A stretch of 64,000 bases of DNA. It comes from a virus (taxonomy: Duplodnaviria > Heunggongvirae > Uroviricota > Caudoviricetes). Under the pieces are notes generated by a model. It was not told where the DNA came from and made no database searches. It was given only the letters and a program-made list of their open reading frames with translations. Positions within the stretch are counted from its first letter, which is position 1, and each line of letters begins with the position of its first letter. The position numbers and the translations under genes are program-made. The stretch lies in the IMG/VR virus record IMGVR_UViG_647533160_000003, one strand, 5' to 3'. This document shows positions 5,711-19,241 of this stretch, piece after piece.

Positions 5711-7051
5711 ATGACCGAACTTTGCCATACAGGACGCGGGCTGTCCGAAGAGTTTGATGAAGATTTCCAGAACAGACTGACGGCATATTTTTGTCGTGAT
5801 CACGAGTTTCTTACTCGTGCGGGAGATCTGGTTGTGCCTAGCCAATTTGCCAATGCGGCCAATGCCATATTGGTTAATATGGTTTCGGGCTATTACCGTA
5901 TGTACAAGAGCGCGCCTTCTTCATCTGCGATTCTGGATATGCTTAAGCGCGCGAAACGCGATAAGACCATCCGTGAGGAACTCTTCCCGGATGTTGTTGC
6001 TGCGTTTAAGCGCATCCTTGCAGAAAAATTGTCTGATACCTCGTACATGGTTGACCAGGTATCCACATTCGCAAAAAGTGTAGCGTTTGATGATGCTCTG
6101 ATTAAAGCTGCTGAACTGAAAGAGAAGGGCGACTTTCAGGGGGCGATGGCAATCATGGCCAAGGTTCAGCAGATAGGCTCGAACGAAGCGACCGGAATCT
6201 ATGACTACTACACCTCCGCAAGTGAGCGATTGAAAGCGCGTGAATATGAGGCTTCAGAGGAGTATGTGCCAAACAGCATTACAACTGGACTCCCTCTGCT
6301 CGATAGGTTGCTGTACCAAAAAGGCTGGGCGAAGCGTGAAATGGTGCTCTTCATGGGGTTCGCTAAATCCGGCAAATCGACCGCAATGGGTGAGTTTTCC
6401 ATAAACGCAACGCTTGCTGGCTACAATGTTCTGTATCTCTCGCTGGAGGTTCACACCACCATTTTATCCGACCGTTTTGATGCAAGATTGTCGGAGACAG
6501 AAATGTCCAAGCTGGTGGAACGGCGCGATGAGGTTCATCGTAAGTTGGCAGAGTTGGGAGCCACGAAGGGGATTGGTAGTTTGTGGGTGGTTGAGCGTCC
6601 GTCAGGAAGTATGTCACCGGCAGATCTGGACCGTATGCTTAACAGCATGAAAGCCAACGGCATGGTGCCTGACATGGTTGTTGTCGACTACGCAGATTTG
6701 ATGCGTGCCAGTTATGACCTTCGTGATGATCGCGCCAACATTCGTAGTATCTACACCGATTTACGTGCTCTTTATGACAAGCATAACGTTGCTGGGATCA
6801 CGGCATCGCAGACAAACCGTGAAGGTGGCGCGTCAGAAGTTGCCACAATGATGCACGCTGCCGACAACATCGAAAAAGTACGTATTGCTGACCTGGTAAT
6901 AACGATCAACAAAACCGAAGAAGAAGAAGCGAAAGGAGAGGCTCGTCTCTACTTTGCTGGTTCACGTAACCAGCAGGGAGGGATCAGCATTCGCGTTAAA
7001 CAAAACCTCGAACAAATGCGCTTCATTGAGCGAATCTTAGACGTTACCTAA
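5711..7051 (+). CDS. DnaB-like replicative DNA helicase
   Basis: Walker A GFAKSGKST and Walker B-like VVVDYADLM in C-terminal RecA-like domain; AAAACAATTTGTTT box upstream. Confidence 0.75.
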   Translation: MTELCHTGRGLSEEFDEDFQNRLTAYFCRDHEFLTRAGDLVVPSQFANAANAILVNMVSGYYRMYKSAPSSSAILDMLKRAKRDKTIREELFPDVVAAFKRILAEKLSDTSYMVDQVSTFAKSVAFDDALIKAAELKEKGDFQGAMAIMAKVQQIGSNEATGIYDYYTSASERLKAREYEASEEYVPNSITTGLPLLDRLLYQKGWAKREMVLFMGFAKSGKSTAMGEFSINATLAGYNVLYLSLEVHTTILSDRFDARLSETEMSKLVERRDEVHRKLAELGATKGIGSLWVVERPSGSMSPADLDRMLNSMKANGMVPDMVVVDYADLMRASYDLRDDRANIRSIYTDLRALYDKHNVAGITASQTNREGGASEVATMMHAADNIEKVRIADLVITINKTEEEEAKGEARLYFAGSRNQQGGISIRVKQNLEQMRFIERILDVT

Positions 7052-14288: not shown

Positions 14289-14363
14289 GATGGTGTAGCT
14301 CAGCGGTAGAGCAGTTGGCTGTTAACCAACTGGTCGGTGGTTCGAATCCACCCACCATCGCCA
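14289..14363 (+). tRNA. tRNA-Asn (anticodon GTT)
   Basis: Cloverleaf by eye: acceptor GATGGTG/CACCATC, T-arm GGTGG-TTCGAAT-CCACC, anticodon loop CTGTTAA, 3' CCA. Confidence 0.8.
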
Positions 14364-14368
14364 ATTTA

Positions 14369-14455
14369 GGGGAGTTAGTCCGTAGAGGTAGCGGGACAGA
14401 CTGTAAATCTACTGTCATTGCGACTCGGGTGGTTCGACTCCATCACTCCCCACCA
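14369..14455 (+). tRNA. tRNA-Tyr-like (anticodon GTA), class II, atypical anticodon stem
   Basis: Acceptor GGGGAGT/ACTCCCC, loop CTGTAAA, long variable arm, CCA; outer two anticodon-stem pairs are A-C mismatches. Confidence 0.55.
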
Positions 14456-14459
14456 AATT

Positions 14460-14535
14460 GCCGGTTTAGCTCAGTTGGTAGAGCGCCTGCCTTGTAAGCA
14501 GGATGTCAGCGGTTCGAGTCCGTTAACCGGCACCA
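14460..14535 (+). tRNA. tRNA-Thr (anticodon TGT)
   Basis: Acceptor GCCGGTT/AACCGGC, D-arm GCTC-AGTTGGTAG-AGC, anticodon stem CCTGC/GCAGG with loop CTTGTAA, CCA. Confidence 0.85.
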
Positions 14536-14759
14536 ATACAACGATAAGATCATTACGGTTAATCGTCGTTCATGTGCACAATGACTGGTCGAAAGGTAGT
14601 GATCTTACCGTTGTGGTGGATTCGCAGACTGATGCGATAGCTTTCTTGGATGTTAGGGAAATGCGGCCGCAAATCTTCCCTTTCGCGAGCGGTGATCGTC
14701 CGTAGTCCTAATTGGCTGCACCGTATGCCGGAGATTCAGTACCGGCCACCACAACGGCC

Positions 14760-14846
14760 GGAGAGTAGGGAGCATGGTGCTCAAGCGGTCTTGAAAATCG
14801 TCCCATTGTGCAAACGATGATGGTTCGATTCCATTACTCTCCGCCA
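14760..14846 (+). tRNA. tRNA-Ser (anticodon TGA), class II
   Basis: Acceptor GGAGAGT/ACTCTCC, anticodon loop CTTGAAA with G-U-containing stem, long variable arm, T-loop TTCGATT, CCA. Confidence 0.65.
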
Positions 14847-15001: not shown

Positions 15002-15024
15002 AAAGGGGCTTCGGCCCCTTTTCT
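15002..15024. terminator. bidirectional intrinsic terminator
   Basis: GGGGC-TTCG-GCCCC hairpin flanked by A-run and T-run, between tRNA cluster and convergent minus-strand operon. Confidence 0.6.
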
Positions 15025-16236
15025 TCAAAAAAGTTTTATAAATTCATAATTCTGGTCAATTAAGGATTCAATACACACCATGCAAAAATCTACATCGTTA
15101 AAATCAGGTGTGTAATATTCATCCTCATAACATTCATTTAGACCTTCAATCAATTTTTCTTTAAAAACTCCCCACGTTTCAATATGAACCATTTCCATAT
15201 AAGGCGCATGTGTATGTACTTGCAATACATCCCAGGTGTCTATAACCTCGATCCGCGGCTTGCAATTAATTTTTTCTAAATATGCCCTCCCAGAATTGTA
15301 AATTTTCGACATTGATGCCCCAAAACCTGATGGTTGGTAATGAGTGTAAATGTCATAAATTTTTTGTCCTATTCTAGGGAGTTGAGAAGCATTGGATATT
15401 TGTGGCGAATGAAAGTATCGCTCTATGGAAGAAAACGCAGAAACATTAACTAGAGTAATCGTATATGGTGCTAAAGTTCTCTCGTTCAAATTTCTACATA
15501 AAATAGCAAACCCATGGCTATTAGTCTTTTCACCGTCTGAGGACATTTTTGCCATGCTGGCTTTAATAACATTCAATTTCGAATGTAAACGAGAAGTGGA
15601 AGTCGGTTGATTATACATTTCATCATCATACAAACATATATGAAACCCGCCAAGATGACGAAATGAGAACTTGAGTGCTTCTTCCGCAATAACTAATTTA
15701 TTAATATCTAAAGGAGTAAGTGATACGTTACCTTGTAAATCATAGCAAGGTTCTAAACATAGAAAGTTTTTCTTCTGCCACACGATCATATTAAAAATAA
15801 AGTGTCTAACCAAAGGTGGCCAGTCAGGTGATATAAGTACATTGGTAATATCTCCATCAGACAAGTATGACAAGTAACTTTTTAGTTCCGCAGCATATGC
15901 CACTAGCTCAGTTCCAGCTTCCCTTGTTGGTGTTGAAAAATTTTTTAACTCAATAAGAACTAAGGATTCATTCTCTGTTGAATAAGCAACGACATCAGGT
16001 CTTAATATCTCAGATTTTGTTGCTGAGATATTCTCATCATCTGTCATTAAATGTAACAATGTTATGTTCTTTAAACAAAACTGATAACTCTCCTTAATTT
16101 TTTTCTCTTCGGGTCTTTTCGGATTAAATTCATTTAATTTATCAATATTGATGATTGAATTATATAATCCATCTTGATCAGATAATTTGTCAATTATCCA
16201 ATTTTGCATTTCCTTTTCGCTTAAAAATATTGACAC
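15025..16236 (-). CDS. PD-(D/E)xK nuclease-like protein, second gene of candidate two-gene defense operon
   Basis: 403 aa; RPDVVAYSTENESLVLIELK is a PD-x14-ExK match; GTG start preceded by GGGAG RBS; very AT-rich. Confidence 0.6.
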   Translation of the reverse strand: MSIFLSEKEMQNWIIDKLSDQDGLYNSIINIDKLNEFNPKRPEEKKIKESYQFCLKNITLLHLMTDDENISATKSEILRPDVVAYSTENESLVLIELKNFSTPTREAGTELVAYAAELKSYLSYLSDGDITNVLISPDWPPLVRHFIFNMIVWQKKNFLCLEPCYDLQGNVSLTPLDINKLVIAEEALKFSFRHLGGFHICLYDDEMYNQPTSTSRLHSKLNVIKASMAKMSSDGEKTNSHGFAILCRNLNERTLAPYTITLVNVSAFSSIERYFHSPQISNASQLPRIGQKIYDIYTHYQPSGFGASMSKIYNSGRAYLEKINCKPRIEVIDTWDVLQVHTHAPYMEMVHIETWGVFKEKLIEGLNECYEDEYYTPDFNDVDFCMVCIESLIDQNYEFIKLF

Positions 16237-16262
16237 TAATTAGGCTCCCGTTAAACCAAAAA

Positions 16263-17084
16263 TTAAAAATCTTGCTTTACTTTATCCATGGTCAGAATTT
16301 TGCTAATAATTGAAGATTCAAATCCATCTAAACCTGAGAGAAAGTTAATTAGCTTTTGGATATGTTGTTCTTTAGGTATAAGTATATATTTTATATCATT
16401 GAACTCAAAATCAATGCCAAACTTTGAAAATTTTGAGCTAATTTTTGCTTTGTCATCAGAAGTGATAACACGCTCCAAACTCAGACTAGGCCATAAATCA
16501 CCAATAAAAGGAGCTGGCACATAACGCCACTCTTTCTCGTCTGCATATATATAATTCTCTATTGTTTTATTATCTTTTCGCTCTAGCTTGCCTCTGTAAT
16601 TTTTCATATAACGCAGTAAATTATATAGATCAGAATATTCTGCTTTCAATTTCTCAAACTCTATTCTGTTTTTGGTATCTAAATTTCCTCTAGCCTTCCA
16701 AAGCGGCACCAACTTATTTTTAATAAGTCGAATTCTGGCATTGTATTTAGAAAATATTTCACTACTCTTATTCATATATAGAACTGGGTGTAGACCTTTC
16801 TTTTCCGCCCAAGACTTAGTTAGCCCAAGACCGAATTCTCCATATTTTCCGCTATGATCTCTGATTTGTGATAGTTTTATGTCACAAAACGATACCATTG
16901 GTACTGCAAACCTCCTGCGTCCCCCGACTCCTCTTATTTCCTCGCGAGCAAGAAATGGTTTAAAATATTTCTCAGCCAATATGCTATAGAAAGCATCTTC
17001 GTTTTTTGTAAAATGAAACAACGTGGTTGGATGAAGACTATAAACAGATTCAACATTCGCATCAGGATTTTCAAGGATAGTCAT
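16263..17084 (-). CDS. hypothetical protein (LFHFT N-terminal motif), first gene of candidate two-gene defense operon
   Basis: About 273 aa from Met 17084 (AGGTG RBS 5 nt upstream; ORF open to 17129); 26-nt gap to downstream gene; AT-rich. Confidence 0.55.
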   Translation of the reverse strand: MTILENPDANVESVYSLHPTTLFHFTKNEDAFYSILAEKYFKPFLAREEIRGVGGRRRFAVPMVSFCDIKLSQIRDHSGKYGEFGLGLTKSWAEKKGLHPVLYMNKSSEIFSKYNARIRLIKNKLVPLWKARGNLDTKNRIEFEKLKAEYSDLYNLLRYMKNYRGKLERKDNKTIENYIYADEKEWRYVPAPFIGDLWPSLSLERVITSDDKAKISSKFSKFGIDFEFNDIKYILIPKEQHIQKLINFLSGLDGFESSIISKILTMDKVKQDF

Positions 17085-17373
17085 TTTACACCTTGTGGAA
17101 AGCCAGTTTAGTTCTGTAAATAGTATCACACGACAGGCGGCTATTCTTCTATCAATAAATGATAGGTAAGCACTTACTTTTTACGCACGTTAACTGTATA
17201 GTTCTTTCGGATACTCACTTGAAAGGACTCAATATGGGAAATAAATGTAAACATGCGCGTCGCGCATCTCGTCAGGTGCAGAAGTCAAATCCATACATTC
17301 ACGAGCACTACCACCTCAGCTCTTTCACTAACCGCTACACGTTCCCCAGCGAAGCGCATAACGAGGCAAAGCA

Positions 17374-17619
17374 ATGACGATCACTATCTATGGACGAGAT
17401 AACTGCTCATACTGCAAACGTGCGGTCGAGCTGGCGAAGCAGCTTCACGGTCACGGTTTTGGCGATTACGAATACATCGATATTGTGTCTGCTGGGATAG
17501 ACAAAGAGAAATTGAGCGCCCTGGTTGGCAAGCCGGTGGAGACCATACCGCAGGTGTTCGTAAATGGCGAATCTATCGGTGGCTATACGGAATTCGCCGC
17601 TCTGGTGAGTACATTATAA
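17374..17619 (+). CDS. glutaredoxin (NrdH/NrdC-like)
   Basis: 81 aa with CSYC redox motif near N-terminus and TIPQVFVNG motif. Confidence 0.75.
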   Translation: MTITIYGRDNCSYCKRAVELAKQLHGHGFGDYEYIDIVSAGIDKEKLSALVGKPVETIPQVFVNGESIGGYTEFAALVSTL

Positions 17620-17645: not shown

Positions 17646-17786
17646 CATGAAAGTGTGCGCTCAAATCAACTATATCTATGAAAAGGACAGTTATAAATAT
17701 TAAAAATATCTAAAATCCCTTCCGATATATGAATTATCAGATTAAAATTTCACACAATGTGCTTTTAATGAGTTATTATTTCACCT

Positions 17787-18411
17787 NNNNNNNNNNNNNN
17801 NNNNNNNNNNNNNNNNNNNNNNNNNNNNNNNNNNNNNNNNNNNNNNNNNNNNNNNNNNNNNNNNNNNNNNNNNNNNNNNNNNNNNNNNNNNNNNNNNNNN
17901 NNNNNNNNNNNNNNNNNNNNNNNNNNNNNNNNNNNNNNNNNNNNNNNNNNNNNNNNNNNNNNNNNNNNNNNNNNNNNNNNNNNNNNNNNNNNNNNNNNNN
18001 NNNNNNNNNNNNNNNNNNNNNNNNNNNNNNNNNNNNNNNNNNNNNNNNNNNNNNNNNNNNNNNNNNNNNNNNNNNNNNNNNNNNNNNNNNNNNNNNNNNN
18101 NNNNNNNNNNNNNNNNNNNNNNNNNNNNNNNNNNNNNNNNNNNNNNNNNNNNNNNNNNNNNNNNNNNNNNNNNNNNNNNNNNNNNNNNNNNNNNNNNNNN
18201 NNNNNNNNNNNNNNNNNNNNNNNNNNNNNNNNNNNNNNNNNNNNNNNNNNNNNNNNNNNNNNNNNNNNNNNNNNNNNNNNNNNNNNNNNNNNNNNNNNNN
18301 NNNNNNNNNNNNNNNNNNNNNNNNNNNNNNNNNNNNNNNNNNNNNNNNNNNNNNNNNNNNNNNNNNNNNNNNNNNNNNNNNNNNNNNNNNNNNNNNNNNN
18401 NNNNNNNNNNN
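17787..18411. other. assembly gap (625 N)
   Basis: Uninterrupted run of n. Confidence 0.99.
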
Positions 18412-19241
18412 GAAATGTTTCTACCACGGTGATAATCCATTCCATAAACCGAATCAATTCCTGAGTTCACTATCTTCATCTGAATTTCAAAAAAATCATT
18501 ATTTAAATCAAAGTAAACAATAGGGACCTCATATCTTCTGCTAGAAAAATCCATTGGTGATAGATAGTTAAGACCATTTGCACTGACCTTCACTTGAATT
18601 CCAGCCTGTATACCTGAATTCGACGTTGGAGCAGAAATAAGTAATTGAGAAAGTGGGTCTCGTTTGTCTATCCACACAATGTCCCGTTGAGTATCATTAG
18701 GTTGATATTTAGTAGGATAGTTAATTTTCGTATAGTTGAGTCCAGTCCCAACAGCTTTATAATTAGACAAACTATCTGTGAAAGGGGTATATCTCTTTGC
18801 TAATAATGCCCAGTTTTCATTTTGTTTCGCGTTTTTTTCACATTCTTCAACAATGAGTGCTTCCGCAATTTTACCTAATATTCTCATAGTTGTTTTATGG
18901 GGATCTAGTTCGATAATGATGTTTGACTTGATCACTCCTTCTTCATTAATACCAACAAGACCTAACTCTTTATCCATGAGTTCAAATAAATTTTCCCCAT
19001 GCTCAATTGCTAACAAAGCTGAAGGTCGTGATAATAATGAAGAGTTATTCCAATCTCCGAGGGAGATATCCAGACCTAAATCAATACCTTTAGTCGTCAC
19101 TACTAGCTGAGGTTTGGGAGGCGTAGCCCCTAATAACTCAGATAGCGTGTTGACTTCCGGTGTCTCTTTTATCATTTTTCTTATCCTGTTGCAGCGATCG
19201 CATGACAATACTATAAAACCAGCCATTTTCAAGTAAATCAA
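18412..19241 (-). CDS. hypothetical protein, N-terminal 276 codons only (interrupted by gap)
   Basis: Minus-strand ORF starting at 19241 and running into the N-run; AT-rich; no motif recognised. Confidence 0.5.

Follow-up and report, generated by a model that had tools for sequence, protein, structure and literature searches.

The window analysed here, a 64,000-nucleotide stretch of DNA, comes from an E. coli SSU5-like phage-plasmid, and the region of interest is 100% identical to pEc2-51408. Two genes on the minus strand, gene 1 (16263–17084; 273 aa; RefSeq WP_000153728.1) and gene 2 (15025–16236; 403 aa; GTG start; WP_001308880.1, a 'hypothetical protein'), lie to the right of a plus-strand tRNA-Asn/Tyr/Thr/Ser cluster (14289–14846) and to the left of the plus-strand glutaredoxin gene grxA (17374–17619). 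The final gene of this backbone tRNA cluster, tRNA-Ser(tga) (14760–14846, plus strand; ARAGORN), forms the left border of a variable slot, and grxA forms its right border. As the original prediction held, both genes are AT-rich: GC content is 33.9% in gene 1 and 33.3% in gene 2, compared with 46.2% in the left backbone, 49.6% in grxA and 44.9% in the whole window.

The longest open reading frame (ORF) at gene 1 (16263–17129, minus strand) encodes 288 residues from a GTG at 17129; however, the true start is likely the ATG at 17084, which is preceded by AAGGTG, yields the 273-residue protein and is also the start given in RefSeq. The spacer between the two genes, TTTTTGGTTTAACGGGAGCCTAATTA (16237–16262, minus strand), is exactly 26 nt long and contains a GGGAG Shine-Dalgarno site (16245–16249) 8 nt ahead of the gene 2 GTG, in agreement with the gap and ribosome-binding site first described. 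The promoter of the cassette is presumably located in the divergent intergenic sequence (17085–17233) that separates gene 1 from the remnant of a phoH start described below. A scan for sigma-70-like promoters upstream of gene 1 returned no credible candidate and fewer total matches than the shuffled expectation, and the same kind of scan found no internal promoter above chance within the two-gene cassette. The two genes are probably co-transcribed.

Beginning 3 nt past the gene 2 stop codon, a bidirectional terminator-like hairpin, AAAGGGGC-TTCG-GCCCCTTT (15002–15021), folds at −13.6 and −13.2 kcal/mol on the two strands (RNAfold). The bidirectional terminator that had been proposed thus has a physical counterpart, although a consensus terminator scan made no call there and the hairpin is an element of the conserved backbone rather than of the cassette: it lies within backbone sequence common to relatives lacking the cassette, and backbone homology reaches window positions 15022–15033. 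It is mainly the terminator of the tRNA cluster, because the better T-tail is on the plus strand.

A variable slot between tRNA-Ser and grxA

The flanks of the slot are present in 217 E. coli genomes, on plasmids every time, and the cassette is found in 19 of the 217. Comparison of relatives reveals that tRNA-Ser(tga) is kept in Cyrano, CH4804 and Klebsiella p23-2 while the content of the slot changes, consisting of gp49 only in Cyrano, a hypothetical gene with phoH and gp49 in CH4804, and AbiGi with phoH and gp49 in p23-2. Neighbouring slots of relatives encode a YafO toxin. Both phoH and gp49, annotated in relatives, are absent from the lineage of the window. A 47-codon ORF (17234–17377, plus strand; a RefSeq feature) begins where relatives have their phoH start codon and ends where their gp49 ends. 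Two homology blocks, 17195–17289 and 17359 onward, match positions 6579–6673 and 7772 onward of relative L003, and the first of them covers sequence that in relatives lies upstream of phoH and at its 5' end. At the sequence level, the ORF looks like a remnant left by deletion of phoH-gp49.

Since content varies between relatives at a fixed backbone slot, the tRNA-Ser/grxA interval is a cargo hotspot of the SSU5-like phage-plasmid. The data support the view that genes 1 and 2, foreign in appearance, are accessory cargo occupying a variable slot on a mobile element, and they resemble hotspot cargo of P2/P4 and of SSU5/P1 phage-plasmids in variable content, fixed slot, AT-richness and orientation against the backbone. 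SSU5-type phage-plasmids have been reported as carriers of diverse defence systems. A literature search that included both protein accessions found no description of the tRNA-grxA slot or of either protein.

Protein families and predicted folds

Gene 1 is clearly an AbiGi family member by sequence, scoring 89.1 bits against Pfam PF10899 (cut-off 22.4) and 158 bits (E 5.3e-47) against the PADLOC AbiGi model, and RefSeq already annotates it as AbiGi. The expectation that neither protein could be assigned to a named family therefore fails for gene 1 and holds for gene 2, which matches no family in Pfam, PADLOC or NCBIfam. The N-terminal motif noticed from the sequence, TTLFHFTKNEDAFYSIL, is present at residues 20–36 of gene 1, inside a conserved motif of the family.

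The predicted gene 1 model has an ADP-ribosyltransferase (ART) fold similar to DarT, the ssDNA-modifying defence toxin of DarTG, and the protein retains S-x-C and E-x-E motifs. Set beside the ART catalytic pattern (R/H, S-x-S or Y, and E-x-E), the family alignment has S65, E183 and E185 in every sequence and C67 and H24 in at least 90% of them, whereas R47 is common, though not invariant. Unlike DarT and Aristaios, the model carries a long helical-hairpin insertion (residues 110–157) and a C-terminal extension, and unlike DarTG there is no adjacent DarG macrodomain gene; gene 1 is flanked instead by gene 2 and the phoH-gp49 remnant, neither with a macrodomain match. The gene 1 family profile had no match at E ≤ 10 among PDB chains, tblastn against deposited phage genomes returned no match for gene 1, and Pfam gave no DarT or DUF2971 match. 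The literature groups AbiGi, DarT and DUF2971 in the ART superfamily, with AbiGi placed there in PMC12522546. Direct comparison of the AbiGi and DUF2971 profiles gave a probability of 0.2% (hhalign), and single-sequence scans were likewise negative; the link between these two families therefore rests on the literature only. The fold and the conserved S-x-C and E-x-E motifs suggest that gene 1 encodes an ADP-ribosyltransferase-like enzyme that uses NAD+ and is related to DarT, rather than an antitoxin. The name 'AbiGi antitoxin' is a database prediction, and the data argue that this label is misleading.

Gene 2 consists of an N-terminal helical region, a PD-(D/E)xK domain with a predicted restriction-endonuclease-like fold of the NucS/EndoMS type, and a conserved C-terminal alpha/beta domain of roughly 230 aa that follows the nuclease half. 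Its PD...ExK match, first noticed from the sequence, withstands comparison: 33 homologues, with identities down to 32%, all retain P80, D81, E96 and K98 of the motif RPD(81)...E(96)LK(98). This conservation supports a genuine PD-(D/E)xK core and marks gene 2 as a putative nuclease. The large C-terminal domain of unknown fold was also borne out, as no solved structural relative was found for it and only generic ferredoxin-like similarities appeared. Residues conserved in this C-domain include D127, D129, D204, H241 and E330. The family profile matched nothing among PDB chains at E ≤ 10, and tblastn against deposited phage genomes gave no match for gene 2. Known nuclease families were considered and rejected: no Pfam or PADLOC match was obtained to Shedu (SduA, DUF4263), with Shedu models included, nor any to HamA or other PADLOC families, and long gene-2 relatives show only motif-level matches of 16–18 bits to HamA and PDC-M47B. 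The PD-(D/E)xK nucleases of NucS/EndoMS fold that serve in known defence systems include Shedu, McrC, Can2/Card1, Cap4 and the HSDR_N domains of type I restriction enzymes. Gene 2 matches none of them at the family level in sequence, places its nuclease N-terminally ahead of the conserved domain, and has no partner that is a helicase, an ATPase or a methylase. The family to which it belongs is undescribed; it has ~450 representatives at 50% clustering and extends from Enterobacterales to Bacteroidota and Alphaproteobacteria.

Genomic contexts of the two families

The neighbourhoods of gene 2 were compared across 70 non-redundant clusters, 58 of which extend 1 kb or more upstream. Only one of the 70 has an AbiGi neighbour, and that one is the window's own cassette; the other 69 have no AbiGi within about 5 kb. 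Clustering of neighbours over the 70 clusters identified no conserved partner, only 186/P2 backbone genes (integrase, CI). In 12–13 clusters the gene-2 relative stands alone directly after the integrase, with a gap of at most a few bases, at the end of a 186/P2-like prophage. Such relatives share the integrase-att position with P2-like hotspot cargo, and PMC13586616 counts the P2 int-att interval among minor defence hotspots. In 186-like prophages they are oriented in the direction of the cI-int operon. A further relative is carried by a conjugative element. Genes for type IIG restriction-modification (RM), Lamassu, AbiE, Mokosh, RosmerTA, Borvo and RiboL-PSP HEPN lie within 2 kb of gene-2 relatives, and chromosomal islands without phage place them among RM, Lamassu, Mokosh and AbiE genes.

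AbiGi genes, too, are frequently found alone. A Klebsiella AbiGi 65% identical to gene 1 occupies the same slot in the same orientation in the SSU5-like p23-2, is directly followed by the backbone terminator and tRNA-Ser, and has no gene 2 beside it. A 71% homologue stands solo next to Avs4 on an IncY plasmid, and homologues at 58–73% and 38% identity stand solo at prophage ends. Among viral loci with an AbiGi homologue, 15 of 18 have no close co-directional downstream gene. The AbiGi family has the look of a DarT-related enzyme, most often encoded solo in prophage and phage-plasmid cargo slots.

Each family therefore exists without the other, and the two genes are separable. Within E. coli, gene 1 and gene 2 are never apart, the same 18 plasmid records having both, and the metagenomic copies also carry them together.

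Two stacked modules or one system

The reading best supported by these comparisons, at a probability of roughly 55%, is that the slot is a hotspot in which two candidate defence modules, each a single autonomous gene, are stacked, and not one new two-gene system. The original proposal of a two-gene system is not supported, since the pair occurs in one cassette only, 69 of 70 gene-2 clusters have no AbiGi and close AbiGi homologues are solo. Its suggestion of a defence role fares better: from genomic context, an anti-phage role is plausible. The two accessory genes, probably co-transcribed, would function autonomously. In a cell carrying the phage-plasmid, gene 1 may modify some nucleic acid or protein on which an infecting phage depends; by analogy with what has been reported for lactococcal AbiG and Aristaios, the modification could prevent early transcription or replication. 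Aristaios, a single DUF2971 protein that acts in lactococcal defence (PMC11381338), provides a precedent for an ART-like protein able to protect on its own. In gene 2, the C-terminal domain may sense or gate, and the nuclease may cut invading DNA or, abortively, cellular DNA.

Several observations sit less comfortably with autonomy. The 26-nt gap, the ribosome-binding site, the shared terminator and the want of an internal promoter fit a functional pair equally well, and the two genes never separate within E. coli. ART-like DUF2971 genes abut gene-2 relatives in two places (2 of 137), separated from them by about 4 and 50 nt; one locus is confirmed (L113), and the other is probable on the basis of an FNDPFE motif and a weak N-terminal match (L099). 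In addition, one AbiGi homologue, P0090, is fused to an HNH nuclease.

These same observations favour a genuine two-component system, an AbiG variant with a PD-(D/E)xK nuclease in place of AbiGII. Either the ART-like protein would mark phage DNA or RNA or regulate the nuclease, which would be the effector, or the nuclease protein would be the sensor and the ART the effector. The layout recalls AbiG of Lactococcus lactis (abiGI and abiGII, pCI750 type), where AbiGI comes first in a tight bicistron and is followed 2 nt on by a partner of ~400 aa; here AbiGi is followed after 26 nt by a 403-aa protein with its own ribosome-binding site. Constant association in E. coli plasmids and metagenomic copies agrees with this, and a 57% homologue of the L113 DUF2971 protein with a Ser/Thr kinase gene 10 nt downstream hints at swappable second genes. 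However, AbiGII is not what the second gene encodes: Pfam, PADLOC and NCBIfam gave no AbiGii match to gene 2 at E ≤ 1, and hhalign against lactococcal AbiGII gave a probability of 0.04%. Gene 1 itself is only ~30% identical to lactococcal AbiGI, scores 52 bits against a cut-off of 300 for the NCBIfam equivalog NF042957, and has solo genes as its closest relatives. The pairing arose only once in evolution, and statistically its constancy therefore counts for nothing. AbiGi is missing beside nearly all gene-2 relatives, intact close AbiGi homologues persist without a partner, even in the same Klebsiella slot, and solo gene-2 relatives persist behind P2-type integrases. Around gene-2 relatives, DUF2971 genes are no commoner than those of other defence families, and Aristaios works alone. 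A two-component system is consequently a possible reading but a doubtful one.

A broader form of this idea would make AbiGi/DUF2971 ART-like proteins the constant half of modular two-gene systems with an interchangeable second component (AbiGII, an HNH fusion, a Ser/Thr kinase or a NucS-like nuclease), so that ADP-ribosylation and DNA cleavage would be coupled in this cassette, while the gene 2 family would separately form a new single-protein nuclease defence with a novel sensor domain. That combination is offered speculatively, and we rate it as rather improbable.

A third possibility, that the genes serve the phage-plasmid itself and not defence, is unlikely. Gene 1 would then act as an ART on components of the host or of rival elements, in counter-defence or take-over like T4 Alt/Mod, and gene 2 as a selfish or recombination-type nuclease that aids spread or persistence through addiction, homing or exclusion of related plasmids. 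Both genes do reside on mobile elements (phage-plasmids, prophages and a conjugative element), gene 2 relatives lie beside integrases and att sites, and phage ARTs that modify host machinery are known, namely the phage-encoded T4 Alt, ModA and ModB. However, the genes run opposite to the phage backbone at the usual site of lysogen-expressed cargo, relatives of gene 2 reside with defence genes in chromosomal islands containing no phage, and neither target duplication of the homing-endonuclease type nor intein or intron context was seen. It is highly improbable that the pair is a toxin-antitoxin addiction module stabilising the phage-plasmid, with gene 2 as nuclease toxin and gene 1 as antitoxin: the Pfam and RefSeq name, a bicistron with the supposed antitoxin first and the YafO toxin in neighbouring slots of relatives speak for it, but the name is a prediction, lactococcal AbiGi and AbiGii are both non-toxic in E. 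coli (PMC3985639), gene 1 has an enzyme-like predicted fold with conserved catalytic-type residues and is also found alone, and gene-2 relatives stand alone in many elements, which is impossible for a toxin without its antitoxin and departs, for both families, from the joint inheritance of type II/IV systems.

With AbiGi looking like a DarT-related enzyme, the mechanism of AbiG, long unexplained, becomes directly testable through NAD+ dependence and E-x-E mutants. The gene 2 family is missed by current annotation tools, and if gene 2 protects against phages, it would extend the known repertoire of defence by a new family of single-protein nucleases. For the SSU5-like elements, the tRNA-Ser/grxA interval is marked as a hotspot worth surveying for phage-plasmid biology.

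Cassette layout and host element

The flanks indicate that the element carrying the cassette is an SSU5-type phage-plasmid, because their gene order (DNA ligase, tRNA cluster, glutaredoxin, tyrosine integrase, HTH repressor, CobT-like gene) is shared with Escherichia phage Cyrano and Klebsiella SSU5-like plasmids. The 2.5 kb around the cassette match plasmid pEc2-51408 (E. coli USDA-ARS-USMARC-51408) at 100% identity, and the region is matched in 217 of the 5,426 complete genomes of E. coli, on plasmids of ~110 kb in every case. The tRNA cluster (14289–14846) contains Asn, Tyr, Thr and Ser tRNAs in the window; Cyrano lacks tRNA-Tyr, so close relatives differ.

The predicted layout is borne out in each structural detail. 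Two minus-strand ORFs, gene 1 (16263–17084) and gene 2 (15025–16236, 403 aa), break the plus-strand backbone between tRNA-Ser (14760–14846) and grxA (17374–17619). They are AT-rich, at 33.9% (gene 1) and 33.3% (gene 2) GC versus 46.2% in the left backbone and 44.9% in the whole window, and are separated by 26 nt, with GGGAG placed 8 nt ahead of the GTG start of gene 2. Judged from the alignment, this GTG is the right start because the homologues also begin MSIF; gene 1 most likely starts at the ATG at 17084, giving 273 aa in agreement with RefSeq. The stable hairpin downstream of gene 2 (15002–15021, about −13.5 kcal/mol) lies within sequence common to relatives without the cassette; it is therefore part of the backbone, and is probably primarily the tRNA-cluster terminator. 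A 47-codon plus-strand ORF (17234–17377) is an apparent deletion scar, running from the phoH start position of related phage-plasmids to the gp49 stop, which falls a few bases into grxA; the window's lineage has neither phoH nor gp49.

A second cargo hotspot seems to lie between grxA and the integrase. The content of this slot varies: relatives have either a hypothetical gene together with a YafO toxin there, or a small gene of another kind. In the window the slot contains a second AT-rich minus-strand gene (17781–19241, 36.6% GC), part of which is hidden by a 625-nt run of N (17787–18411). In the otherwise identical pEc2-51408 (L001, 8913–9902), where the masked stretch corresponds to only ~185 nt, this gene encodes a 307/329-aa hypothetical protein, WP_052322692.1, for which a Pfam search gave no match.

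Families of the two genes

Gene 1 was originally assigned to no named family, which does not hold. Its protein scores 89 bits with Pfam AbiGi (PF10899; cut-off 22.4) and matches PADLOC AbiGi over the full length (E = 5e-47), and its RefSeq name is already 'abortive infection system antitoxin AbiGi family protein'. With 52 bits where the cut-off is 300, it does not qualify as an equivalog of lactococcal AbiGI. AbiGi has been classed in the ART superfamily beside DarT and DUF2971, in an R-S-E clade with motifs R, SxS and ExE (PMC12522546), and the gene 1 data agree with this placement. S65 (PMVSFCD) and both E183 and E185 (ADEKEWR) are invariant in the gene 1 alignment, and C67 and H24 are kept in at least 90% of its sequences; H24 falls within the LFHFT stretch that the original prediction had picked out. 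The 'antitoxin' in the AbiGi name is a prediction. The sole experiment found reported no toxicity in E. coli for either of the lactococcal proteins, AbiGi or AbiGii (PMC3985639), and a 2026 review still gives the AbiG mechanism as unknown (PMC13064643). Gene 1 is better described as a solo AbiGi/DarT-like putative enzyme, of known family and unsolved mechanism.

Gene 2, as predicted, has no family in Pfam, PADLOC or NCBIfam. Its sole matches are sub-threshold, to the HSDR_N nuclease domain of type I restriction enzymes, and it falls in phrog_30092, of unknown function. A word-indexed search returned 54 clusters, none named, and an exhaustive profile search returned 451 representatives (E ≤ 1e-3), including a ~720-aa subfamily with an additional, likewise unannotated C-terminal half. 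In this large subfamily (P0220–P0318, ~700–750 aa) the entire gene-2-like module occupies the first ~370 residues; the extra ~350 aa have no match in Pfam or PADLOC. The predicted nuclease motif is real, with P80, D81, E96 and K98 invariant across 33 sequences at identities down to 32%. Many residues of the C-terminal half are also invariant in 33 sequences (e.g. D127, D129, Y203, D204, G242, F243, E330, W335, W355 and G356), and its only likeness is to generic ferredoxin-like alpha/beta sandwiches. AbiGII was ruled out as an identity for gene 2 (hhalign probability 0.04% against the lactococcal protein); the cassette therefore lacks a defining feature of AbiG, the AbiGII partner. Gene 2 is better described as a member of an undescribed family of NucS-like putative nucleases and, by its behaviour, a single-gene defence candidate.

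Occurrence of each gene apart from the other

Relatives of gene 2 were collected at 98 loci, drawn from reference genomes, viral contigs and metagenomes and from look-ups of identical proteins. Grouping at 90% identity gives 70 clusters, and at least 1 kb of upstream sequence is available for 58. The AbiGi profile matches a neighbour in one of the 70, the window's own cassette. Of the undescribed two-gene defence system originally proposed, the finding itself and the nuclease motif stand, but this count speaks against reading the two genes as one system. Neighbours that recur are limited to the integrase and CI-type repressor of 186/P2-like prophages. In 12–13 clusters the gene 2 relative directly follows the integrase, with a gap of at most a few bases, and is the final gene ahead of the host junction; a recent survey classes the stretch between integrase and att as a minor P2 defence hotspot (PMC13586616). 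Other copies stand alone in a conjugative element or chromosomal islands. Among 137 ORFs within 2 kb at 48 non-P2 loci, several match defence families, namely type IIG RM, Lamassu LmuA/B, AbiE, Mokosh, RosmerTA, Borvo, PADLOC candidate systems and RiboL-PSP HEPN. Two unrelated loci, L006 (4720–5811) and L089 (3736–4827), encode homologous 364-aa proteins, without Pfam match, ~175 nt upstream of gene 2 relatives on the same strand; in L089 the 364-aa gene is itself preceded by an ORF of 284 aa that weakly matches a RES domain (E = 0.002).

Conversely, AbiGi homologues of 58–73% identity occur singly, at the ends of prophages or beside Avs4, and the same holds for a 38%-identical homologue and for most of the 18 viral-contig AbiGi loci. 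A 65%-identical AbiGi occupies the cassette's slot in Klebsiella SSU5-like plasmids; as in the window, it is divergent from phoH, and the backbone terminator and tRNA-Ser come directly after it. On the P1-type (IncY) plasmid pKBN10P04869B (L036, 4001–8819), a 71%-identical solo AbiGi is convergent with an Avs4 (AVAST type 4) gene, a pairing repeated on metagenomic contigs L033 and L034. Each gene thus persists, intact, without its partner. The E. coli pairing derives from a single event: both genes are found on one set of 18 plasmid records.

One system or two cargo genes

The cassette is best read as a stack of two cargo genes that are separately mobile rather than an undescribed two-gene defence system, with a probability of roughly 0.55. 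A true coupled system is unlikely by comparison. In its favour, the cassette's layout is operon-like and has the geometry of canonical AbiG, in which a 397-aa abiGII lies 2 nt after abiGI, and one AbiGi homologue, P0090, is fused to a nuclease. Two distant gene 2 loci also have an abutting same-strand DUF2971 gene, ~4 nt upstream in L113 (PF11185 confirmed through the identical protein P0319) and ~50 nt downstream in L099 (identified by motif only). DUF2971 is a reported ART-like relative of AbiGi (PMC12522546), a relation undetected with our own profiles. However, the gene after a 57% homologue of the L113 DUF2971 protein encodes a Ser/Thr kinase rather than a gene 2 relative, DUF2971 is no commoner among gene 2 neighbours than several other defence families, and Aristaios, a DUF2971 protein that acts alone and has an ART fold, has been validated as a single-gene defence (PMC11381338). 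Element-serving or toxin–antitoxin roles of the two genes make up the rest and are the least favoured.

P0090 itself is a 411-aa AbiGi-domain protein with an HNH nuclease domain (PF01844/PF14279); no other of the 120 listed homologues is a fusion. In L133 (4001–6415) and L134 (2086–4500), the gene 10 nt after a DUF2971 gene encodes a Ser/Thr protein kinase of 535 aa, and the pair may represent a further two-gene module around an ART-like protein.

For the two cargo genes, neither result would astonish a specialist; the re-reading of the 'AbiGi antitoxin' as a probable enzyme is worth a bench test, and the gene 2 family deserves one as well.
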